In this document: positions 2,650 to 16,007 of the stretch, in pieces | Position numbering within the stretch: position 1 is the stretch's first letter | How the letters are laid out: each line of letters opens with the position of its first letter | IMG/VR virus record: IMGVR_UViG_3300043411_002784 | DNA length: 26,713 nucleotides | Strand: one strand, 5' to 3' | From: a virus | Lineage: Duplodnaviria; Heunggongvirae; Uroviricota; Caudoviricetes | The notes under the pieces: model-generated | Databases searched by the model: none | The model's input: the letters and a program-made list of their open reading frames with translations, nothing else | Told to the model about the DNA's origin: nothing | Position numbers and translations under genes: made by a program

Positions 2650-5600
2650 ATGCCTACGATGCCCAACGGAGCCACGCTGCCTCAGTCGGCGTTGCCCATG
2701 CAGCCTACGCTTCGGCCTCAGGCCCCTAACCCTGCGGCGCAGATCAACACGCAACAGGCGGGCGGACCCGGTCAAGGCGGAGCGGCGACGGCGGCAGGCG
2801 TCCAACAGGTGGCTCAACAGCAGGGCGTGGGCGTCCCCTCGCCCACGCACGGGCAAGCGGCTCCCCCTCCACAGCCTGCCGCGGGGCCTCCCGCCGCGGC
2901 CTCGCCCCCGGTGACTCCGCCCCCAGTTCCCCCAGGCTTCGCTCCCAACAGTCAGGGCCAGGTGGTCTACCCGCCAGGCCAAGGCCCCGTCACGGAAAAG
3001 GCCAAGCAATTGATTCCCCAACCCAACGCTCCCATCGCTGCGGAAGCGCGTGGTCCCCAAGGCATGCCCATGAACGATCCCTCGCTCAACCCGTTCAACG
3101 TGCGGACGGCGGCTGACTGGGATGCCAGGCTCAAGCAGCTCAAGGAGCGTCGCGATCCTCTGGGCCTTGAGGAAGACCCCGACCATGATCCCGAGCGGGA
3201 TTGGGTCGGTAAGCACGCCATGGCTGCCGCTGGCCTTGATACGGCGGCCGAGAAAGCGCTGGACATCGCTAAGCGTGCCGCCTCGCTTCATCAGGGCGGC
3301 GTGGGCCAAGGCCTGCAACCAACGCCTGCCGTCGGGCTTCATAAGACGGCCTGGCACCATTCGCAACCTGTCGCCGGGACTAATGCGGCGACCCCCGTGA
3401 AGAATGCCTCTGAGCGTGCCGTCGCGCTTCGTACGTCCGGCCCTGTGTGTCGGACCGTGCAAGACGGCCATGGCTACGCAGTCGTTAAGCATGCCGCCTT
3501 GCTTCAAGTTGGCGGCCATGTCGTCGGACCTATGGACGACGAGCCTGTCGACGGGCTTCATACGTCTGACCAACTCCAGCAGGACCAAGAGACGGAAGGC
3601 GACGAGCTGATGGCTCGGGCTGCGACTCTGGGTAAGATGGCGGGTCTATTGTTCAAGACGGCTGGCCAGGGGGCGTCCCCATCGATCGCCGTCGCGGGCT
3701 ACACGGCTAACGGCCAAAACGCCCTCGACCAGGTGAACCGGGCCATTGCCCGCCGCCAGCCGCGCCGCCCGTACGTCGAGAACGACAAGCAATCCGCCGC
3801 GCCGGGGCTCGTCCCGCAGCCGGCCATGCCGACGGCTCCCGCGTTGCCGCCGGCGTTCGCCATGCCTGCCGCCGGGCCTAGTACGACGGCCGCCAAAGTG
3901 AACGCAATGCCGTCCGCCGCCTCCGCTCGTCCCACGATCCAGACGGCTCCGGCTGCTGGAGCGATCCGTCCCGCTGTGCCTGCCGCGCGGCCTGGTAGCG
4001 CTGCCCCGATGCAGACTAATGCCAAGCCCAAGCCCCTGGTCCCCGCGGGCACGGGCTCCAGCAAGATGCCCGCCGTCCCAGGCGGGATCAAGAAAGCGTT
4101 CTTCGGTCCGCTCGGCGGGGGCATGGTTGGCGCTGCCGCCGGTCGCGTAGGCACGAAGATACTCGGAGCGATGACTGGGCCGTCGACTCCCGCCGCTGCG
4201 CCCAAGCCGCCAATGCCGCCAACGCCTAAGCCGGCCCCGACGCCGGCTGCGGCCATGAAGCCGCCGGCCCCTGCGCCGGCGAAGCCGCCGATGCACGTCG
4301 TGCAGGATCCCAAGCTCATGCGCCAGGGCGTGACGCCGACGCCGCCTCCTACGCCTGCCGCACGGCCTAGCAGCGCCGGCTTCGGCTCACTGACTCCGCC
4401 TGCCGTGCCGCCGATCAGTCGCCCGCCGATCACGCCGCAACCGGGGCTAGGCGTGCCGCCAGTTAAGATGCCGCAGAAAACGCCGCAACAGCCGTCGATG
4501 GACGAGTTCTGGCGGTTCCGGTCGCGGATGCCTCAGAACATGGATCCCGGGTTCACGCCGAACTTCACGCCGCAACAGACGTGGCTGGAACAGGAGCTGG
4601 GCATGCCCGCCGGCTCGTGGAACATGGATCCCGGGTTCACGCCGGACGTCCCGCCGCAGCAGTCGCCGGCCGAGAAGATATTGGGGGTGCCTGCCGGGTC
4701 GCTCAACAAGGACCCTGGCATGACGCCGCCGCAGCCTGCCGGTCCCGCAGCTCCCGACATGCTGCAGCAGCTAAAGGCGAGCGAGTTCAACAAGGAAGCC
4801 TGGCTCGGGGCCTTGGCCCGCGGAGCCGGCAAGATGCTGGGCGGAGCCGGCAAGGCCGTGGGCGGAGCTGCAGCTCGGCTCGAAGGGGCCGCCGTACCCA
4901 AACTGCTGTCCAAGATGGCGCCCGCTGCGCCTGCCGCCGCGGCCAAGCCCGTGGCTCAGGGCCTTGAGTCGCTCGCCATGCGTCCCGCACAGGCCGCTGG
5001 TCAGGCCGCTAGCAAAACTCTACCCATGGCCGCCGACTCGACCATTGCCATGAGCCCCGCCGTCCGCCAGCAAGCGATGGACGCCGCCAAGCGGAACGCC
5101 ATCCAACTGGAAGGCCGTCGCGCGGCGGCCCAGGGACAGCCCTGGAACCTCTCAGGAGCCCCCTCGCCCGCTCAGGCGGCTGCGGCGCGGGCTCGCACGG
5201 GACTTCCGCCTGGCGCCGCTCCTAGCGGCCCTGGGGCGGGCGTACGCCCCGTGCCTGGTCAAACGCCTCCCGTCGGGCCTGGTATGACGGGCACTGTCCC
5301 GAAGCAGCCAGGAGCGATGCCTGCCGCCGGGCCTAGTGCGGCGGCGACGGACCCACTGTCGGCCGGTCTCGGCGGCCGCGCCGCCGCACTCGGTCGTCAA
5401 GCCGGCAAAGCGACGCTCAATACGGCCAAGAGCCTCCCGGGCGCCGTGGCCATGGGTGCTGGCATGACCGCGGGCGTCCAAGGGCTCGATGCGGCGATGA
5501 CGGCGGCCGATCCCCAGGCTCCCGGCAACCAAGGGGGCGGCGGGGGCTTCATGGATTCGATCAAGGGAACGGTCGGCTCGTGGCTGGGGGTCGACCCTGG

Positions 5601-6300
5601 CAGCGTGAAGGCGTTCCAAGGACTCCAGGGCGAGCTCGACGCTGCGGGCATCAAGGTGATGGACGACAACGGGCAGCCCTTGGGGCTCAACGACATCATG
5701 ACCCAGGCGATGCAGAGTCCCCAGGGCCAGAAGATGCTCGTCGAGCGAGCCCCCGAGATCATGGCGCAAGCCTTGGAGGATCCCGAGAAGGCGGGACCGC
5801 TGATGGAAGGCTTCGCCGGCTCGCTGGCCAGCCTCTCGCCTGAAGCGAAGGCCCGGTTGGCGGCTGATCCCAACGCTGCGGGCATCCTGTCGTCCCTCAT
5901 GGGCGGCGGCGAGGGGATGATGGGCGGCCTCGCCGGCGGCGCGCAGCAGCTCTGGACGATGTTCCAGCAGCTCGATCCGACGCTGCAGCTGCTCATCGGG
6001 GGCGGCCTCATCGCCGGGTTGACGGGCCTGCTCAGCGGCAGCGGCATGCTGACCGCCGGCGGACTCGGGGCGCTGGCGGCGGGCGGCCTCGGAGCCTATT
6101 ATGGCGACGAGATCGGCGCGATGTTCGGGGGCGGCGAGCAACAGCAGCCGCAGCAACCTCTGGGCCCGCGATCGATGGCTCCCATGCCGTCGCTCGTGCC
6201 TCAGCAGTTGTTTGGGCAGGGCGGCCCGCGGGGGCTGATCAACCCCGCTTTGAAGATGCAAGGCCTCGACCCCAACACGGGGATGCCTCAAGGATCCTAA
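2650..6300 (+). CDS. Large Pro/Ala/Gly/Gln-rich low-complexity protein (1216 aa) with a C-terminal Gly-rich hydrophobic segment; possibly virion-internal
   Basis: 3.6-kb uninterrupted ORF; internal 28-aa repeats in frame; hydrophobic LLIGGGLIAG...GGLGAYYG near the end. The functional label is inference only. Confidence 0.85.
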   Translation: MPTMPNGATLPQSALPMQPTLRPQAPNPAAQINTQQAGGPGQGGAATAAGVQQVAQQQGVGVPSPTHGQAAPPPQPAAGPPAAASPPVTPPPVPPGFAPNSQGQVVYPPGQGPVTEKAKQLIPQPNAPIAAEARGPQGMPMNDPSLNPFNVRTAADWDARLKQLKERRDPLGLEEDPDHDPERDWVGKHAMAAAGLDTAAEKALDIAKRAASLHQGGVGQGLQPTPAVGLHKTAWHHSQPVAGTNAATPVKNASERAVALRTSGPVCRTVQDGHGYAVVKHAALLQVGGHVVGPMDDEPVDGLHTSDQLQQDQETEGDELMARAATLGKMAGLLFKTAGQGASPSIAVAGYTANGQNALDQVNRAIARRQPRRPYVENDKQSAAPGLVPQPAMPTAPALPPAFAMPAAGPSTTAAKVNAMPSAASARPTIQTAPAAGAIRPAVPAARPGSAAPMQTNAKPKPLVPAGTGSSKMPAVPGGIKKAFFGPLGGGMVGAAAGRVGTKILGAMTGPSTPAAAPKPPMPPTPKPAPTPAAAMKPPAPAPAKPPMHVVQDPKLMRQGVTPTPPPTPAARPSSAGFGSLTPPAVPPISRPPITPQPGLGVPPVKMPQKTPQQPSMDEFWRFRSRMPQNMDPGFTPNFTPQQTWLEQELGMPAGSWNMDPGFTPDVPPQQSPAEKILGVPAGSLNKDPGMTPPQPAGPAAPDMLQQLKASEFNKEAWLGALARGAGKMLGGAGKAVGGAAARLEGAAVPKLLSKMAPAAPAAAAKPVAQGLESLAMRPAQAAGQAASKTLPMAADSTIAMSPAVRQQAMDAAKRNAIQLEGRRAAAQGQPWNLSGAPSPAQAAAARARTGLPPGAAPSGPGAGVRPVPGQTPPVGPGMTGTVPKQPGAMPAAGPSAAATDPLSAGLGGRAAALGRQAGKATLNTAKSLPGAVAMGAGMTAGVQGLDAAMTAADPQAPGNQGGGGGFMDSIKGTVGSWLGVDPGSVKAFQGLQGELDAAGIKVMDDNGQPLGLNDIMTQAMQSPQGQKMLVERAPEIMAQALEDPEKAGPLMEGFAGSLASLSPEAKARLAADPNAAGILSSLMGGGEGMMGGLAGGAQQLWTMFQQLDPTLQLLIGGGLIAGLTGLLSGSGMLTAGGLGALAAGGLGAYYGDEIGAMFGGGEQQQPQQPLGPRSMAPMPSLVPQQLFGQGGPRGLINPALKMQGLDPNTGMPQGS
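2874..2901 (+). repeat. Pseudoknot repeat inside CDS
   Basis: GCC-T-GCCGCGG-GGC-CTCCCG-CCGCGGC-C; both stems perfect. Confidence 0.7.
3222..3571 (+). repeat. Pseudoknot repeat cluster inside CDS, 7 copies (3222, 3273, 3324, 3366, 3414, 3489, 3543)
   Basis: S1 variants GGC/GCC, GCG/CGC, GCC/GGC, GCA/TGC; start-to-start distances 51, 51, 42, 48, 75, 54 nt are all multiples of 3. Confidence 0.85.
3864..4381 (+). repeat. Pseudoknot repeats inside CDS, 3 dispersed copies (3864, 3978, 4353)
   Basis: e.g. GCC-T-GCCGCGC-GGC-CTGGTA-GCGCTGC-C at 3978. Confidence 0.65.
4537..4728 (+). repeat. 84-nt (28-aa) tandem repeat, about 2.3 copies, NMDPGFTP...LG(M/V)PAGS
   Basis: AACATGGATCCCGGGTTCACGCCG identical at 4537 and 4621; degenerate third copy at 4705. 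Confidence 0.9.
5265..5346 (+). repeat. Pseudoknot repeats inside CDS, 2 copies (5265, 5319)
   Basis: GCC-T-CCCGTCG-GGC-CTGGTA-TGACGGG-C and GCC-T-GCCGCCG-GGC-CTAGTG-CGGCGGC-G. Confidence 0.7.
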
Positions 6301-6805
6301 GCCTGTCGTCTGGCTTCGTAGGGCGACCAATCGGTCCAGCGTGCAGACGCCAGGACTCGATCGTCGTCGGACTTGGAGACGGCCGTGTGAGTGTGCGCCT
6401 AAGCCTGTCGTCTGGCTTCGTAGGGCGACGGCTAGCCGGTAGCCTGGCCGGCGGCAAAGACGACCAAGATGCTGTGCCTGCCGTCTGGCGTTGTAAGACG
6501 GACGTCGGTCGTTGTCTAGCCGGCCGTTGGTCTGCTCGTGCCTGCCGTCCGGCTTGATAGGACGAGCCAAAATCCGCATCCGAGTGCTCGTGCCTGCCGT
6601 CTGGCTTGTAAGACGGCCAATAGGGGGAAGGATTGAGCTTGCCGCCGAGCTTCGTACGTCGGCCCGACTTCAAGTGTCACTGAGCCTGCCGCCTGGCTTC
6701 GTAAGGCAGCCTCGATGCCGCAACCGGTCGTGCCTGCCGTCTGGCTTCGTAGGACGGCCGAACGCGTCTTGGACCTGAGCTTGCCGTCGAGCTTTGTAGG
6801 CGGCC
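6301..6805 (+). repeat. Pseudoknot repeat array, first part, 9 copies (6301, 6403, 6476, 6540, 6592, 6637, 6684, 6732, 6779) with unique spacers
   Basis: Typical unit GCC-T-GCCGTCT-GGC-TTCGTA-GGACGGC-C; starts immediately after TAA of the large ORF. Confidence 0.95.
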
Positions 6806-6840
6806 TCCGTGCCGCAAATTGACGGACAAGAAAGAAGAAA

Positions 6841-6941
6841 GCCGGAGTAGCTCAAATGGTAGAGCGGCGGGAGTGACCGCGGCGAAACCCTATTACTGCT
6901 GCAGCAGATGGGTAGTGCGGGTTCGAGTCCCGTCTCCGGCG
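6841..6941 (+). tRNA. tRNA-like RNA with intact acceptor, D and T arms but a non-canonical anticodon arm and oversized variable region (possibly degenerate tRNA-Ser(TGA))
   Basis: GCCGGAG/CTCCGGC acceptor stem; TA-GCTC-AAATGGTA-GAGC D arm; GCGGG-TTCGAGT-CCCGT T arm; discriminator G; no encoded CCA. Confidence 0.75.
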
Positions 6942-6945
6942 TTGA

Positions 6946-7752
6946 GCCTGCCGCCCGGCGTCGTTGGGCGGCCGGGGGTGATCTCGATTTCGCAATCTGA
7001 TCGCGCCTGCCGCCTGGCGTCGGGCCTCGTACGACGGCCGATGGGGTCGGGGCAGCCCATAGCTAAAAAATTATCACATGATAAGTTTGTCGCAGGACTT
7101 TGTTCCGCGACCTTGTGGCCACTGAGTTCGAGCCTGCCTGCGGGCTTCGTACGCCGGGCGCACCTGGAGACGCCGTCTTCGCCTATGTCTGCCGCAAGAC
7201 TTTGACCTGCGGCCCACGAGACCGTGCGGGTTGCGGCCTCAGCCATGAACGCTCGCGCCTGTCGACGGGCTTCGTACGCCGGCCTGACTGGGACGACGCC
7301 GACCGCCGGATCTGGTAAGCTGATTCGCTACTACGCTCTGCCGTCGAGCTTCGTCCCACGGCCTTGCGATCAGGGGCAACGACGGCCTACCATCGCGATT
7401 CCGCAATCAGACGGCCTTCGCAGGAAAGACATTACGCTTGCCGTCGAGCTTTGTTCGCCGGCCTGCTCGCAGCTCCTCGCTGCGCCAGAACGTGCCGCGT
7501 CGTTTGCTCACGCGGCCCATCGTATCGCACCGGTTTGCGCCTGCCGTCGGGCCTCGTGCGTCGGCTTGAGCTTGCCAGAGGTCCTGGTATGCTCGCAGCC
7601 ATGCTTGCCGTCGAGCTTCGCATCGCGGCCAAACGGACCCGCTGCCGACGGACCCGATGTCGACGGACTGAATGCAGCTACTCGCTGCGTGCGGCGTCGC
7701 CTCGTAACGCCGCCATCGTCTCGTGCTTGTCGCCTGGCCTCGCAGGGCGGCC
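6946..7752 (+). repeat. Pseudoknot repeat array, second part, 12 copies (6946, 7005, 7132, 7187, 7257, 7335, 7436, 7490, 7539, 7603, 7687, 7725)
   Basis: Includes S1 variants GTC/GAC (7187), ACG/CGT (7490), GCG/CGC (7687), GCT/AGC (7436, 7603). Confidence 0.92.
7071..7084. promoter_or_regulatory. Operator-like near-palindrome TTATCACATGATAA
   Basis: One mismatch to the 1754 palindrome; preceded by A6. Confidence 0.6.
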
Positions 7753-7797
7753 ACAATGTAACCGGGATCCTCCCCTCATTTCCTCAGGAGACGTCCG

Positions 7798-8133
7798 ATG
7801 CTGAGCACCGTATTCATCGACGCGATTCACGGCACGCTGTTCCTCAAGGGACTCGCGCTGCTGCAAGGCCTGCTGATCTACATCATGCTGGTTCGCTGCT
7901 CGGGCCTCGGCCCCAGTCATTCGACGGCGACGCTCTACCACAACACGGAGCAGCGGCTGATCTATGCGCTGCTCGCCGTCGGCGCGGTCTACGTCCAGCT
8001 GGGCCTGCTCTGGCACTGGTTCGAGAAGGCGCTGGACAACGGCCCGTTGTCGGGGCTGCTGCAGGACGTCTACAAGCTGCTGTTCGACACCTACACCGTT
8101 TGTTGTGCTACGCCTGCCGGCGGGTTTTGTTAG
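7798..8133 (+). CDS. Small integral membrane protein (111 aa)
   Basis: AGGAG Shine-Dalgarno; 2-3 hydrophobic stretches; the stop lies inside the 8112 repeat copy. Confidence 0.8.
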   Translation: MLSTVFIDAIHGTLFLKGLALLQGLLIYIMLVRCSGLGPSHSTATLYHNTEQRLIYALLAVGAVYVQLGLLWHWFEKALDNGPLSGLLQDVYKLLFDTYTVCCATPAGGFC

Positions 8134-8366
8134 CCGGCCCCAAATGTGCGGCGACGAGCGCAAGCGCACTCGTTGCGCACTCGTCAGGCCTGCCAGCGGG
8201 CCTTGTTCGCTGGCCCGAAAGATGATGGCAAATATGCCTGCCGCGCGGCTTTATTGCGCGGCCCGGCACTCGTTTGTCTGCGTGAACTGCGCCTGGCATC
8301 AGGCCTTGTTTGATGTCCCCCGCTCTTTTTTTGCGCTACGCCTGCCGACGGGCTTCGTCGTCGGCC
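8112..8366 (+). repeat. Pseudoknot repeats, 5 copies (8112, 8188, 8236, 8291, 8340)
   Basis: S2 stems differ in sequence yet pair: GCCAGCG/CGCTGGC, GCCGCGC/GCGCGGC, GGCATCA/TGATGTC, GCCGACG/CGTCGGC. Confidence 0.95.
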
Positions 8367-8396
8367 ATTGATCTTAAGGGCAACAAAGGACCGCCT

Positions 8397-8819
8397 ATGA
8401 CATTTAGTGAACTTGACGCCGCCGATCAGCAGCGTCGCCAGCGGGACGAGGACCGCGAAGCCAAAAGCCTGGCCGCCCGGCAGGCGTTCATCGAGCTGCT
8501 GGCCGACCCCGAGGTCCGCAACGGCGTCGACACGGTCGCAAAGGCCCAGGAGCTGATCGATCAGATGGAAGAACAGATCCCTGGCGAGTCGCTGCCGCCT
8601 TGCTACGACTGGGCGGTGGCGAAGCGCAACCACCTGGAGAAGTCCTTGACGCTAGACGATCTCGCCAACGCAAGGCATGAAGCGATGCAGGCCAACGTCG
8701 ACGAGCAGCTGGGCTTCTCGCCCACGCCCGAGGCCCAGACCCGCATGATCCGCCGGCTGATCGAGCTGCTGGCTCGCGCCGAGGTCACCATTGAAATGCT
8801 GCAGAAGTCATGCCGCTGA
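8397..8819 (+). CDS. Hypothetical helical protein (140 aa)
   Basis: ATG at 8397 after AAGGA, in frame with track ORF 8310..8819. Confidence 0.85.
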   Translation: MTFSELDAADQQRRQRDEDREAKSLAARQAFIELLADPEVRNGVDTVAKAQELIDQMEEQIPGESLPPCYDWAVAKRNHLEKSLTLDDLANARHEAMQANVDEQLGFSPTPEAQTRMIRRLIELLARAEVTIEMLQKSCR

Positions 8820-9091
8820 AACGCTACCTGACCAACTGCACCGTCCAGGGCAACGGCTCGGCGATCACGGCGATGATCGACGTTGCTCGCGAGATCACCC
8901 GGAAGACGTTTCTCAAGCACGTCGACCGCGCGTCGCTCGTCGAACTGGAGCGCTCTCTGGGCTACGCGGCCCATCCTCGCCAGGGGCTCACCCTGGCGGG
9001 AGACTATCACGTTCAGTATGCGAAAAGCACGTTTCGCGGCCGCCCCTGCGTCTACCTGACCTGGAGCTGCATCGAGTACGTGTTCGTCTGA
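8810..9091 (+). CDS. Hypothetical protein (93 aa)
   Basis: Overlaps the upstream stop region; globular-looking sequence; TGA directly abuts a repeat. Confidence 0.85.
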   Translation: MPLKRYLTNCTVQGNGSAITAMIDVAREITRKTFLKHVDRASLVELERSLGYAAHPRQGLTLAGDYHVQYAKSTFRGRPCVYLTWSCIEYVFV

Positions 9092-9119
9092 GCCTGCCGG
9101 CGGGCTTGCTTCGCCGGCC
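9092..9119 (+). repeat. Pseudoknot repeat abutting the stop codon
   Basis: TGA-GCC-T-GCCGGCG-GGC-TTGCTT-CGCCGGC-C. Confidence 0.9.
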
Positions 9120-9187
9120 CGCCGATATTTAGCCGCCTGGCGTGTCGCCGGCGGCGCGTGTCACCCTCTCTTAGAAGGAACGTTGTG

Positions 9188-9691
9188 ATGAGAAATCTAT
9201 TGTTGAGCCTTGTCGCCTTGACGCTTGTTGCGGCCGGGCAGTCCCACGCAGCGACCCTGACGCTGACCAACCAGTCGGCCAATTCGACCTTCTTTGCGGT
9301 GGCCCCCGAGCAAGACTACTTTGATTACGACCACCGCTACGCCTCGCTGAACCAGACCGGCGCACCCGCGGTCGACGTGCAGACGAGCACCTTCTGGACC
9401 GACGCCAATCAGTTCTGGCTCTTCGGGGCCGACAACAAGGGCGTCTTGCACACGATCGACCTGAACCCGATGCCGACGCTGGTCAACGTGACGCTGCACC
9501 AGATCGTCAACGGTCAGCAGCGCAGCACCTACCAGTATTTCTTCGGTCAGACGACCAACGGCGTGATCGCCGAGCAATGGCTCCCCGTGGTGACGCGGAC
9601 GTTGGCGCCCGCCGGGGTGCCGGAACCGTCGACGCTGGCCTTGGCCGCTTTGGGCCTCGTGGGCGCAGCGTTCCGTCGTCTGCAGCAGTAA
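9188..9691 (+). CDS. PEP-CTERM sorting domain-containing secreted protein
   Basis: N-terminal signal peptide (MRNLLLSLVALTLVAAGQSHA) and C-terminal VPEPSTLALAALGLVGAAFRR (PEP, transmembrane helix, basic tail). Confidence 0.9.
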   Translation: MRNLLLSLVALTLVAAGQSHAATLTLTNQSANSTFFAVAPEQDYFDYDHRYASLNQTGAPAVDVQTSTFWTDANQFWLFGADNKGVLHTIDLNPMPTLVNVTLHQIVNGQQRSTYQYFFGQTTNGVIAEQWLPVVTRTLAPAGVPEPSTLALAALGLVGAAFRRLQQ

Positions 9692-9706
9692 ACTGAGCGA
9701 GCCCGC

Positions 9707-9736
9707 GCCCGTCGCCGTGATCGCACGGCGGCGGGC
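9707..9736 (+). terminator. 13-bp GC hairpin after the PEP-CTERM gene (no T-tract)
   Basis: GCCCGTCGCCGTG-ATCG-CACGGCGGCGGGC. Confidence 0.5.
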
Positions 9737-9749
9737 AGGTTCGAGCTAA

Positions 9750-10068
9750 GCCTGGCGTTCGGCTTCGTCAGGACGCCCCGGTATCACGGCGCCCAGGCGT
9801 CGCGGTGCGTCGGAACGCCCGTAGCGGTGGAGATTAGACCAAGCCTGTCGTCTGGCTTCGTAGGGTGACTGCGAATGTCACCCGTGAAGGCGACCCGGCG
9901 GATGCGATGAACCTGTTGACGAATTAAGCCTGTCGTCTGGCTTCATAGGCCGACCAACCGGGTCGCCAGTGGAAGACGACCCCAAACATTGCCTGTTCGC
10001 GTCTGTCGACGGACTTCATGCGTCGGCCCTACCCCCATATCTGTGTCCGGCCAGTTCATAGCCGGGCC
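9750..10068 (+). repeat. Pseudoknot repeats, 5 copies (9750, 9843, 9928, 10001, 10041)
   Basis: Includes GTC/GAC (10001) and CTG/CAG (10041) S1 variants. Confidence 0.92.
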
Positions 10069-10103
10069 GTCCGCTTGCTGATGTCAAACCTAAGGACAAA
10101 CTC

Positions 10104-10301
10104 ATGTCATTAGCCCCAGCCAAAATCAAGAAACGACTAGAGTATCTCCGCGGCGAGCTGCGGGCTGAGTGCATCAGCCTGGAGGAGCTCGCGGAGCTGC
10201 AAGATCTCGCTCCGCACATTGACCCAGGCGACGTCGAGCTGCTGGAAGCGGCGGGCGTCCCTGAGTTCCCTGAAGACGATGCGGGCCAGGACGCTTCGTA
10301 G
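10104..10301 (+). CDS. Small hypothetical protein (65 aa)
   Basis: AAGGA Shine-Dalgarno; amphipathic RLEYLRGELRAECIS...LLEAAGVPE. Confidence 0.8.
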   Translation: MSLAPAKIKKRLEYLRGELRAECISLEELAELQDLAPHIDPGDVELLEAAGVPEFPEDDAGQDAS

Positions 10302-10327
10302 CCTGGACCATCTCCGAATGAACCTGT

Positions 10328-10448
10328 GCGTGTCGGGCCGCCTGATAGCCCGGACGAACTGTGCCTCTGTTTCCGCGTGCCAGGCCGCCTCGTCGTCTGG
10401 ACCATCTCGGCACGACTCGAAGCGTGCCCCGTCGCTTCGTGCGGGGCC
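10328..10448 (+). repeat. Pseudoknot repeats, 3 copies (10328, 10375, 10422), all with S1 GCG/CGC
   Basis: e.g. GCG-T-GCCCCGT-CGC-TTCGT-GCGGGGC-C; 47-nt period. Confidence 0.9.
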
Positions 10449-10502
10449 ATCCCAGCCGCCGTTGTTTCCCTTTCACCTCTTTTCACCCTTGGAGAATCTT
10501 GC

Positions 10503-10892
10503 ATGAATCTCAGTCGCGCCGCTCAGTACGCCATCGTGTCGATGGCTCAGCTACGCACGACCGGCGACCCCGTCCCCTGCTCCCATCTGGCCAAGCGGGG
10601 CGACATGCCCGAACGGTTCCTGCTGCAGGTGCTGCGCAGCCTGGTGACCGCCGGCCTCGTGAAATCCCGTCGCGGCGTCGACGGGGGCTACAACCTGGCC
10701 AAACGGCCGAACGAGATCACCCTGGCGATGATCATCGAAGCGATCGACGGTCCGGTCGCCGTCGGATCCTTCGAGGTGCTGCAAGCGTTGCCCTCGGACG
10801 CTCTGTCGCACGTCGCCCGGGCGCTGAAGCACGCCAACAGCGAGTCGCTGCGCCAGCTGTCGCGAGTCACGCTTTCCCAGCTCGCCTGTTAA
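10503..10892 (+). CDS. Rrf2-family winged-helix transcriptional regulator, lacking the Fe-S Cys triad
   Basis: YA...LA...MPERFLLQVLRSLVTAGLVKSRRGVDGGYNLAKRPNEITLAMIIEAIDG matches the Rrf2 signature; GGAGA Shine-Dalgarno. Confidence 0.92.
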   Translation: MNLSRAAQYAIVSMAQLRTTGDPVPCSHLAKRGDMPERFLLQVLRSLVTAGLVKSRRGVDGGYNLAKRPNEITLAMIIEAIDGPVAVGSFEVLQALPSDALSHVARALKHANSESLRQLSRVTLSQLAC

Positions 10893-10902
10893 GCGTTATC
10901 AT

Positions 10903-11071
10903 GCCTGCCGTCGGGCTTCGTGCGACGGCCGTTGGCCGCAGTCGTCTTAAGCCTGCCGAGCGGCTTCGTAGTTCGACCGATAGGTCTAAGCGACCTGTCG
11001 CCCTTCGCAAAAGTCGCGCTCGGACGTGGCTGGATCTGATTACGCCTGCCGTCAGGCTTTGTAGAACGGCC
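10903..11071 (+). repeat. Pseudoknot repeats, 3 copies (10903, 10951, 11044)
   Basis: e.g. GCC-T-GCCGTCG-GGC-TTCGTG-CGACGGC-C. Confidence 0.92.
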
Positions 11072-11100
11072 TTAGCCCCCTCTGGCTGCGGAACTGAACT

Positions 11101-11418
11101 ATGTCACAACCTCTCTGCGATCTCTTCAACGAGACGATGGACAAGCTCCGCGACCTCCAGCGGCAGCACGGACTGCTGAAGCTGGCGTTCGGGCTCGATC
11201 CCGAAGACCGGATCGTGGACATTGGCGAGGACAAACGGAGTCTGCTCGTCGATAATCGAGCAGGCTGGCGTCGCCGCGTGTGGAGCGCGGGCGAGACGGC
11301 CCTGGAGCGCGAGCACGCCTCGTCCCTGTCCGGGGACTTGGTCGCGTCACTGGCGAGTTGCGGCGGGTTGCGCATTACGACGGACAACGTCGCAGCGGAG
11401 GTTGCGACCCAAGATTAG
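11101..11418 (+). CDS. Hypothetical protein (105 aa)
   Basis: ORF fits the + strand tiling between repeat clusters. Confidence 0.75.
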   Translation: MSQPLCDLFNETMDKLRDLQRQHGLLKLAFGLDPEDRIVDIGEDKRSLLVDNRAGWRRRVWSAGETALEREHASSLSGDLVASLASCGGLRITTDNVAAEVATQD

Positions 11419-11429
11419 GAGCGTCGGTC

Positions 11430-11705
11430 ATGGAAGGCCTCGATCCCGTACTGATTGGATTTCTGCTGGGGGCCGTCGTCGGCGGCCTGCTGGGCTGCCT
11501 CGGGGGTTATTGTCTGGGGCTGGGTCGCGTGCGTCGCGAGGCGGTCGAGCGCGGCTTCGGCCGCTTCCAGCTCTACTACGTCGAGGCGGCGTTCGATCAG
11601 CCGGGGACGACCATCGGCCGCTTCGTGTGGCGGGGCGACCCGGAGTGGGGAGACGCCTGCGACTATCAGCCGCCGCACTTGGCGACGATTGACGAAGAAA
11701 CCTAA
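11430..11705 (+). CDS. Single-pass membrane protein (91 aa)
   Basis: AGGAG then ATG at 11430; N-terminal hydrophobic Gly-rich helix. Confidence 0.8.
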   Translation: MEGLDPVLIGFLLGAVVGGLLGCLGGYCLGLGRVRREAVERGFGRFQLYYVEAAFDQPGTTIGRFVWRGDPEWGDACDYQPPHLATIDEET

Positions 11706-11733
11706 GCCTGTCGTCGGGCTTCGTACGACTGCC
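11706..11733 (+). repeat. Pseudoknot repeat abutting the stop codon
   Basis: TAA-GCC-T-GTCGTCG-GGC-TTCGTA-CGACTGC-C. Confidence 0.9.
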
Positions 11734-11787
11734 GCAACACAGTGTTAGGCTACGACGACCTGTCACTTGACTTACTTGGAGAACTAT

Positions 11788-12198
11788 ATGGACCGTAGAA
11801 CCGCTTTGCGTTGCCTAGCCGGAGCTGCGGCGATGCCTTTGGTTGCGCCTGCAATCGCTTCTGCCGTCGTCGTTCCGTCTCCCGACGCCATTTGGCGAGG
11901 CCTGGAGGTTTCGAGCGTCGCCGGTAAGCATTGCGTCGCTCGTTACGACGGGCTCGCCGGCACGATCGTGGCCGGGCTGTGGGACGAGCCGTTGTCGGTT
12001 GAAGACGAAAATCGGTGGCTGGACGATCCTCGTTGGTTCTATACGTCGAAGCCTTACAGCGTGTGGGCGATCGACGTGCCGAAAAATCTGACGTCGCAGG
12101 AGCTGACCGGCTACTACCAGCAGGCGCGGGACGGGTTTCAAGCGTTCCCGAGTCTGCCGTCGAGCTTGCCGCGACGGACCCTTGCGCACGTCCTTTAA
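11788..12198 (+). CDS. Protein with a twin-arginine (Tat)-type signal peptide
   Basis: GGAGA Shine-Dalgarno; MDRRTALRCLAGAAAMPLVAPAIASA. Confidence 0.75.
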   Translation: MDRRTALRCLAGAAAMPLVAPAIASAVVVPSPDAIWRGLEVSSVAGKHCVARYDGLAGTIVAGLWDEPLSVEDENRWLDDPRWFYTSKPYSVWAIDVPKNLTSQELTGYYQQARDGFQAFPSLPSSLPRRTLAHVL

Positions 12199-12326
12199 GC
12201 CTGCCGTCCGGCTTCGTATGACGGCCCATCCGCACAATCTTCTCTACGCCTGCCGTCCGGCTTGATGCGGCGGCCTCGCCAATTTCTGCACGGACCAAAC
12301 CTGCCGTCTGGTTTCCCATGTCGGCC
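12152..12326 (+). repeat. Pseudoknot repeats, 4 copies (12152 degenerate and in-gene, 12199, 12248, 12299)
   Basis: 12199 abuts TAA; 12299 has S1 ACC/GGT. Confidence 0.88.
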
Positions 12327-12370
12327 TGTCGCAAGCATGAGTGCGGCAAAAGATAAGAGGGGAACGCCGG

Positions 12371-12592
12371 ATGAGATTCAACCTGCCGTTCCTGCTCTGG
12401 CTCGCCGCCTTCGTCGCCGTTGCGGCGTTTAGCGGCCAATGTTGGTACGATGCTCGTCCGGACAAAGCGGGCGACGCCAGATATATCTTTGATTCCGTTG
12501 GCTGGGGAGTCACCGTCGCTGCGCAGGCCTGCATCGTGTTCCCGGCGATTCTCGGCAGCCTCTGGCTCGCCTGGCGTCGTCGCAAACCTTAA
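12371..12592 (+). CDS. Small two-helix membrane protein (73 aa)
   Basis: GAGGGG Shine-Dalgarno; two hydrophobic segments and a basic tail. Confidence 0.8.
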   Translation: MRFNLPFLLWLAAFVAVAAFSGQCWYDARPDKAGDARYIFDSVGWGVTVAAQACIVFPAILGSLWLAWRRRKP

Positions 12593-12619
12593 CCTGCCGC
12601 CTGGTTTCGTCGGGCGGCC
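12592..12619 (+). repeat. Pseudoknot repeat overlapping the stop codon (S1 ACC/GGT)
   Basis: ACC-T-GCCGCCT-GGT-TTCGTC-GGGCGGC-C. Confidence 0.9.
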
Positions 12620-15734: not shown

Positions 15735-16007
15735 ATGGCCTACGATCAAGACGCCGCCGTACGGCACGTCATCCGCGAGTCCTTCCGCGAACTGGCGGAG
15801 AAGCTCGCCGACTTCAACCAGACGACCCATACGTCCTTCCATCGTCACCGGGGCCTGCCCGGGATCACGGAGTGTCTCGCCGCTTGTTACATGAAGCCAG
15901 ACGCGCTCGCGATCAGCAACCTGTCGCAGACGCTGCGGCAATTTCTCAAGGACTCGAACCATGACCCAGACGCCCCTCCGTTCGGACGTGAGGCACCTCC
16001 CGGCTGA
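15735..16007 (+). CDS. Hypothetical protein (90 aa)
   Basis: AAGGA then ATG at 15735. Confidence 0.75.
   Translation: MAYDQDAAVRHVIRESFRELAEKLADFNQTTHTSFHRHRGLPGITECLAACYMKPDALAISNLSQTLRQFLKDSNHDPDAPPFGREAPPG

Follow-up and report, generated by a model that had tools for sequence, protein, structure and literature searches.

Introduction

RNase P, RNase Z (or RNase E together with exonucleases), and the CCA-adding enzyme read only the acceptor, T, and elbow parts of a tRNA, and the ribosome, most synthetases, and anticodon nucleases read the anticodon part. A number of tRNA-shaped RNAs that do not decode are already known, including YrlA, tmRNA, the TMER units, mascRNA, and irregular or inactive tRNAs from soil. 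The YrlA of M. smegmatis is not a tRNA, yet it has a 7-bp acceptor stem, and in vivo RNase P cuts it and CCA is added (PMC4201824). In MHV68, tRNase Z cuts behind the tRNA-like units of the TMERs and thereby releases hairpins (PMC4838037). Soil metagenomes contain irregular tRNAs in allo-tRNA-like polycistrons, some of which are charged but unused in translation and some of which are pseudogenes (PMC5389517). At the 3' end of phage tRNAs, cleavage can be carried out by theta ribozymes, a minimal HDV-like class that folds as a nested double pseudoknot and has its catalytic C in J4/2 (PMC10879173).

The locus described here is another instance of a non-decoding tRNA-shaped RNA, in an unusual setting. 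It lies in a 26.7-kb stretch of viral DNA, which we refer to as the window and which is part of a 90.7-kb contig. The element is a 101-nt tRNA-like gene on the + strand, inside an array of pseudoknot repeats, and its parts and immediate neighbors are as follows.

6775 to 6805, + strand: upstream repeat copy (nhmmer, 23.6 bits), of direct-repeat family D1, the last of a tightly spaced run
6806 to 6840, + strand: leader of the tRNA-like gene, 35 nt (direct reading)
6841 to 6941, + strand: tRNA-like gene (RF00005), with acceptor 6841-6847 paired with 6934-6940, D arm 6850-6865, G26 at 6866, T arm 6917-6933, and discriminator G6941
6867 to 6880, + strand: hairpin 1, at the anticodon-arm position, GCGG/GAGUGA/CCGC, 4 bp with a 6-nt loop, no U33 and no purine 37 (folds and register test)
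6887 to 6913, + strand: hairpin 2, at the variable-arm position, irregular, 27 nt, with the cap CUGC-UGCA-GCAG (folds)
6942 to 6973, + strand: downstream repeat copy (nhmmer, 19.5 bits), with helix 1 formed by 6946-6948 and 6957-6959 and helix 2 by 6950-6955 and 6967-6972

Comparison with known non-decoding tRNA-shaped RNAs

YrlA (RF02553; PMC4201824) resembles the window element in that it is non-decoding and keeps a T arm, a D arm, and an acceptor-like stem. However, the arms of YrlA stand in a circularly permuted order (T arm, then a closed acceptor stem, then D arm), its structure continues into a stem that binds Rsr, and its gene adjoins rsr, whereas the window element has the normal tRNA order. 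No match to RF02553 was found at an E value of ≤10 over positions 5000 to 9500 or at the gathering score in the whole window, and no TROVE domain was found among the 30 window ORFs scanned. YrlA-like loci did turn up elsewhere in our searches. In Streptomyces sp. N35 (contig L010), tandem matches of 51 and 41 bits, below the cut-off of 69, lie at 2441-2545 and 2691-2768 (- strand), and others are found on contigs L025 and L028. The D and T arms of these Streptomyces loci are nearly identical to those of the window element, in permuted order, and the loci are probably unannotated actinobacterial Y RNAs.

The MHV68 TMERs (PMC4838037) and the mascRNA of MALAT1 (RF01684) share with the window element a non-decoding tRNA shape that sits inside a longer noncoding RNA and is followed by other structured RNAs. 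Their ends are set by host tRNA-processing enzymes, and the same would hold for the window element. They are eukaryotic or herpesviral RNAs with experimentally mapped ends, whereas the window element is read from sequence alone and belongs to a bacterial host, and the likeness is one of function and not of membership. The window element gave no match to RF01684. The soil tRNAs (PMC5389517) are likewise environmental tRNA-shaped genes with an irregular secondary structure, but their acceptor/T configuration is 8/4 or 9/3 and their anticodon arm is retained, whereas the window element combines a 7/5 configuration with the loss of the anticodon arm. Finally, no tmRNA was called by ARAGORN, either in default mode over the window or in tmRNA-only mode over positions 6700 to 7100, and Rfam gave no tmRNA match; the middle of the gene, at 50 nt, is too short for a tag frame.

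The tRNA-like gene keeps its acceptor, D arm, and T arm

Positions 6841 to 6941 of the + strand match RF00005 over model positions 1 to 71 (45.2 bits, with a gathering score of 29; E = 9e-7; Rfam/Infernal), and this is the sole Rfam match above gathering in the window. In the Infernal alignment, the acceptor, positions 8 to 26, and the T arm are placed at near-certain posterior probability. Direct reading of the acceptor, GCCGGAG/CTCCGGC, gives Watson-Crick pairs at all seven positions, followed by the discriminator G73; CCA is not encoded, and TTG stands directly after G6941. Positions 8 to 26 read TA-GCTC-AAATGGTA-GAGC-G, so that the D stem is GCTC/GAGC, and the D-side core nucleotides U8, A14, G18, G19, and A21 are kept. 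The T arm, GCGGG-TTCGAGT-CCCGT, carries G53, T54, T55, C56, A58, and C61, and a Levitt pair is possible between A15 and T48. Taken over the acceptor, D, and T stems, 16 of 16 pairs are formed, one of them G.U; all elbow and core nucleotides are kept, and the acceptor/T minihelix of 12 bp has the 7/5 configuration. The leader starts with TCCGTGCCGCAA, which is similar to the preceding spacer, and its last 15 nt (6826-6840) are purine/A-rich and unstructured. The Rfam match and direct reading therefore confirm the original prediction, made from the letters of this DNA, that the acceptor, D, and T arms are intact behind an A-rich 5' leader. We also ran the ARAGORN check that had been proposed: in default mode, the program calls no tRNA anywhere in the window, the tRNA-like gene included, and ARAGORN and Rfam together reveal no second tRNA there.

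The 5' half of the gene is identical at 25 of 25 positions to a bacterial tRNA-Thr(CGU) (contig L012, 5962-6035) and is near tRNA-Gly and other tRNA-Thr sequences, and the acceptor and T arm are identical to those of a Nocardioides tRNA-Leu(UAG) (contig L026). The D arm of that tRNA-Leu is class II and quite unlike the D arm of the tRNA-like gene, which is of the class I type with a 4-bp stem and an 8-nt loop and is identical to that of tRNA-Thr and tRNA-Gly. Because the 5' half matches tRNA-Thr and the D arm differs from that of class II tRNA-Leu, the body of the gene is, by sequence, a generic class I tRNA and not Ser-like. An earlier description of the gene as Ser-like holds for the G discriminator and the long extra hairpin but fails on the class I D arm and the complete match of the 5' half to tRNA-Thr. 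Identity as a class II tRNA-Ser was rejected for the same D arm and, in addition, for the six unpaired nucleotides that precede the extra hairpin in the constrained fold, unlike the arrangement in tRNA-Ser.

The tRNA-like gene probably cannot read codons

With a canonical class I tRNA (RF00005; the tRNA-Thr(CGU) of L012), the gene has in common the acceptor, positions 8 to 26, the T arm, the elbow, and the 7/5 minihelix. It differs in its middle, where 50 nt (6867-6916) rather than about 22 separate G26 from the T stem, and where there is no 5-bp/7-nt anticodon arm and no U33 or purine 37. Infernal leaves 37 unaligned nucleotides in place of the 17 of an anticodon arm and adds 11 inserted nucleotides in the variable region. 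In the canonical register, the arm reads GCGGG-AGTGACC-GCGGC, which forms three of five pairs (two positions are G.G), has G33 and C37, and presents TGA as the "anticodon." When 17-nt windows were taken across the 50-nt middle, four of five stem pairs were found in just two, neither of which has both U33 and a purine at 37. An exhaustive scan of single excisions restored no canonical class I arm, the best reaching three of five stem pairs; when the long variable region was retained, the sole solution with 5 bp was a 19-nt excision that leaves the loop TATTACT, with A33 and C37. With introns allowed, ARAGORN draws a tRNA-Asn(ATT) with a 17-nt intron at 32/33 and a loop with T33 and A37. We rejected this model for its A34, a G.G in the stem, and the spacing of two nucleotides between the D and anticodon stems. 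No group I intron was matched in the gene by Rfam.

The gene lacks a usable anticodon arm and, for that reason, is unlikely to read codons. The broken arm had been predicted in the same terms (G33, C37, two G.G mismatches, and a TGA register), and direct reading and the register test agree with it. The two hairpins that had been proposed for the middle, one of GCGG/CCGC with a 6-nt loop (GAGTGA) and one of the form CCC..CTGC-TGCA-GCAG..GGG, are both present in the folds. The broader proposal, a tRNA-shaped gene that lies within the array on the same strand and is non-decoding in any canonical way, is likewise supported.

Hairpin 2 holds a 12-nt palindrome, CTGCTGCAGCAG, that is unique in the window, as are both middle segments of the gene. 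A second GGTTCGAGTCC at 15950-15960 on the - strand is a chance match and forms no hairpin there. When the three tRNA arms were enforced, the gene folded at -43.7 kcal/mol into a five-way junction with two extra hairpins, compared to an unconstrained minimum free energy (MFE) of -45.3 kcal/mol, a gap of 1.6 kcal/mol; among the genuine tRNAs folded as controls, two of four likewise did not have the cloverleaf as the MFE structure. The probability of the T arm in the unconstrained ensemble is 0.01, because the GC-rich middle can pair with the T arm. Compared with shuffled sequence, the two inserted hairpins show no added stability (z = -1.2), and a search with the repeat HMM (nhmmer) found no repeat copy hidden within the middle.

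The downstream pseudoknot is a gene-end copy of a genome-wide repeat

To describe the neighboring repeat, we built an HMM from 12 array copies and searched with nhmmer. The window contains 47 copies, all on the + strand, and in a related contig, L001, 26 of 27 copies are on the + strand. All 47 are confined to 6296-12619, in the first 12.6 kb of the window, with none beyond 12.6 kb at an E value of ≤10. The family folds as an H-type pseudoknot, about 28 nt long, whose two helices have 4 bp and 6 bp. Across 38 copies, 88.9% of pseudoknot cells are paired, compared to 20 to 49% in slid controls; the same copies show 23 double-sided changes versus 8.1 in shuffles, and 0 of 500 shuffles reached the observed covariation score. 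The RNA that lies 3 to 4 nt downstream of the tRNA-like gene is a real pseudoknot, supported by covariation at the level of the family. A pseudoknot directly 3' of the tRNA-like RNA was part of the original prediction and stands, with helix 1 beginning at 6945/6946, 3 to 4 nt past the discriminator and not at it.

Repeat copies also adjoin the ends of protein genes. Five overlap protein-gene stops, at 6300, 9091, 11705, 12198, and 12592, and two more lie 9 to 12 nt downstream of such a stop. Adjacency to the tRNA-like gene thus follows a general rule of this genome, and the downstream pseudoknot is an ordinary gene-end copy of a genome-wide repeat, not a tRNA-specific device.

As in the case of theta ribozymes, the downstream copy is pseudoknotted and immediately follows a phage tRNA-shaped gene on the same strand. 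Unlike theta ribozymes, the repeat has two helices only, and most of its 47 copies are away from any tRNA. It does not form the nested double pseudoknot (P1, P1.1, P2, and P3), since the single nucleotide between the 5' strand of helix 2 and the 3' strand of helix 1 leaves no room for P3/L3 or P1.1. The invariant unpaired columns of the repeat are T9 and T21, T24 is near-invariant, and the conserved Cs all fall within helices. No ribozyme in Rfam matched the repeat at an E value of ≤10. A theta/HDV-like ribozyme dedicated to the tRNA-like gene, a role previously suggested for this pseudoknot, is removed by the repeat analysis: the RNA is H-type with two helices, lacks an invariant unpaired C and an Rfam match, and is one of 47 family members, which are found next to the stops of protein genes as well.

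The only syntenic relative carries the array without the tRNA-like gene

Relatives were sought by protein with the products of the 1216-aa, 134-aa, and 93-aa genes, which led to L001 and to contigs L021 to L024 and L030 to L034. L001, a JGI contig of 9,082 bp, is syntenic with the window over eight genes whose proteins are 41 to 73% identical, and it is the sole true relative among the data searched. Its array sits after the homologous long gene and includes the same A-run and palindrome fused to a repeat copy. Before the palindrome, there are 11 repeat copies plus the tRNA-like gene in the window versus 2 repeat copies in L001. The tRNA-like gene itself left no tRNA match in L001 at an E value of ≤1 and no trace by blastn. 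Because L001 has the array and the palindrome without the tRNA-like gene, the unit is lineage-specific and dispensable for the array as such. The other contigs, which carry homologues of two conserved neighboring proteins, contain neither the repeat nor the tRNA-like gene.

Searches by nucleotide sequence returned no further homologue. In IMG/VR, exact and gapped DNA patterns of the tRNA-like gene matched nothing but unrelated phage tRNAs, and blastn against 50,697 phage records gave no match. When the 5' and 3' halves were run as patterns over 185,579 species genomes, the matches were ordinary tRNA-Thr, tRNA-Gly, and tRNA-Leu genes, isolated tRNA 3' halves, and YrlA-like loci. The pseudoknot pattern is absent from the viral and genome contig collections, and its seven matches in metagenome contigs are single-copy and all unrelated.

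Some of the loci recovered along the way are unusual in themselves. In three IMG/VR phages (L005, 413-507; L007, 1231-1322; L008, 3574-3666), a tRNA-Ile(UAU) of 92 to 95 nt has a long class II-like variable arm, which is unusual for an isoleucine tRNA. Four phage tRNA-shaped genes of 101 to 113 nt (L003, 6185-6297, - strand; L002, 2635-2735; L004, 3214-3314, - strand; L009, 2608-2708) are above the Rfam tRNA cut-off (47.3 and 31.7 bits) and uncalled by ARAGORN; the inserts between their D and T arms are long, and their sequence is unrelated to that of the window element. Isolated tRNA 3' halves, consisting of the T arm and the acceptor 3' strand, occur in an Azoarcus metagenome-assembled genome (MAG) (L027, 4505-4545, - strand) and a Solibacteraceae MAG (L029, 7650-7690, - strand). 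These are identical to the window element over 24 nt, lie outside callable tRNAs, are probably integration scars, and give no firm clue to the host.

Predicted excision of the tRNA-like unit from the array transcript

The array, at about 6296 to 7760, follows a 1216-aa low-complexity gene, and the convincing or called ORFs are all on the + strand, as are the tRNA-like gene and the 47 repeats. No promoter- or terminator-like sites were found beyond chance at 6200-7900, including the interval between the 1216-aa gene and the tRNA-like unit. When 30 of the window ORFs were scanned with Pfam and PHROG, the only matches were to Rrf2, a PEP-CTERM motif, a phage zinc-finger domain, and a single PHROG whose function is unknown; no integrase, TROVE/Ro60, RNA ligase, nuclease, or synthetase domain was found among them.

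The explanation that we favor, to which we assign an even chance, is that the locus is a tRNA-derived, non-decoding unit that keeps everything that tRNA-processing enzymes read and is consequently excised from the array transcript. The tRNA-derived gene would have lost the ability to decode or would never have had it; its anticodon arm and variable loop would have been replaced by the two hairpins, with the minihelix, elbow, and discriminator kept. Upon transcription of the array, the unit would be cut out as a stable RNA of about 101 to 104 nt, and its excision would split the transcript into two pieces, one downstream and one upstream that extends the 1216-aa gene at its 3' end. Since the parts read by RNase P, RNase Z, and the CCA-adding enzyme are intact, excision is expected from any array transcript that reads through the unit. 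Service as an array-processing site for RNase P and RNase Z, one of the roles raised in the original prediction, is plausible. Should processing occur in this way, the tRNA shape would act as punctuation for a bacterial mobile element within a long noncoding pseudoknot array, and the unit would offer a handle on the maturation of this unexplained array.

Excision could be selected, either as punctuation or for a stable tRNA-shaped RNA, or it could be incidental to a phage tRNA gene that was disabled recently, and these two options are close to evenly balanced. The specific form of selection in which the unit is a non-decoding tRNA mimic that serves as a built-in cutting mark for RNase P and RNase Z, releasing or separating the pseudoknot-bearing noncoding RNAs from the 3' end of the long structural-gene transcript, strikes us as rather unlikely; its RNA might also be charged by SerRS via G73 and the long extra arm. 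Were it correct, the locus would be the bacterial-virus counterpart of the herpesvirus TMER and MALAT1-mascRNA arrangements.

The most serious alternative, although a doubtful one, is that the gene is an inert relic, that is, a phage tRNA gene that lost its anticodon arm to an insertion and substitutions, that has no selected role, and whose processing is incidental or absent. The gene is missing from L001, the sole syntenic relative; the stretch of array in which it stands has expanded in this lineage (11 copies ahead of the palindrome versus 2 in L001); its inserted hairpins are thermodynamically unremarkable, being no stabler than shuffles; and there is no other tRNA in the window. These points would all suit a relic. 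What would speak for selection is that at least two events are needed to produce the present middle, yet the remainder is unhit, with no defect in any of the 16 stem pairs or the conserved elbow nucleotides, and that the gene has its own gene-end pseudoknot in the same arrangement as the protein genes. If it is merely a disabled tRNA gene, the locus is ordinary and is a marker that the lineage once had a tRNA.

Less probable still is that the RNA is a selected mimic that acts by binding, as a sponge or decoy for a host reader of the acceptor end or elbow (a tRNA-targeting toxin, a modification enzyme, the CCA enzyme, or EF-Tu) or as a non-decoder charged by SerRS. In favor of such a mimic are the intact elbow and acceptor and the discarded anticodon arm. 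No partner protein was recognized in the 30 window ORFs scanned, however, and for a tRNA-Ser-like mimic, the class I D arm and the six unpaired nucleotides before the extra arm are out of place. An anticodon-nuclease decoy, as proposed in the original prediction, is unlikely because those enzymes require and recognize the anticodon loop, and the gene lacks precisely this loop. The RNA may be a decoy for acceptor-end or elbow readers, or may be serylated via G73 and the long arm, and nothing in our analysis supports either. SerRS does ignore the anticodon (PMC7609411), and irregular tRNAs that are charged but unused in translation are known (PMC5389517).

It is highly improbable that the gene encodes a decoding tRNA with an unusual arm or with a small intron that is removed before use. 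The Asn(ATT) model drawn by ARAGORN does supply T33 and A37 by way of a 17-nt intron, and excision of one 19-nt segment leaves TATTACT enclosed by a 5-bp stem, but both models break basic rules: the first has A34, which is not a natural Asn anticodon base, together with G.G in the stem and a two-nucleotide spacer from the D stem to the anticodon stem, and the second has A33 and C37. The best single-excision class I model has three of five stem pairs. The 28 extra nucleotides are far too few for a group I intron, and Rfam matched none; bulge-helix-bulge splicing is not known from bacteria and phages.

A misassembly of the metagenome within a tRNA gene, or an attP core derived from a tRNA, although brought to mind by the isolated 3' halves of L027 and L029, with their 24 identical nucleotides and their look of integration scars, has very little chance of being right, given that the 5' and 3' halves of the gene pair perfectly and flank one continuous, unique middle, that the same repeat brackets the element on both sides, that an attP would need only the 3' part, and that the 30 ORFs scanned include no integrase domain.

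Additional features of the array

Two further features of the array were noted. The motif TGCCGCAA recurs just past pseudoknot copies, at 6714-6722, at 6809-6817 (the start of the tRNA-like leader), and at 7192-7199, and some repeat units may extend 3' to include it. In both genomes, an A-run is followed by the palindrome TTATCAC(A/G)TGATAA, fused to a pseudoknot copy (7060-7112 in the window and 6270-6322 in L001); this looks like an operator or promoter that divides the array. A gene for an Rrf2-family regulator lies downstream of the palindrome in both, at 10326-10892 in the window and 8012-8608 in L001.
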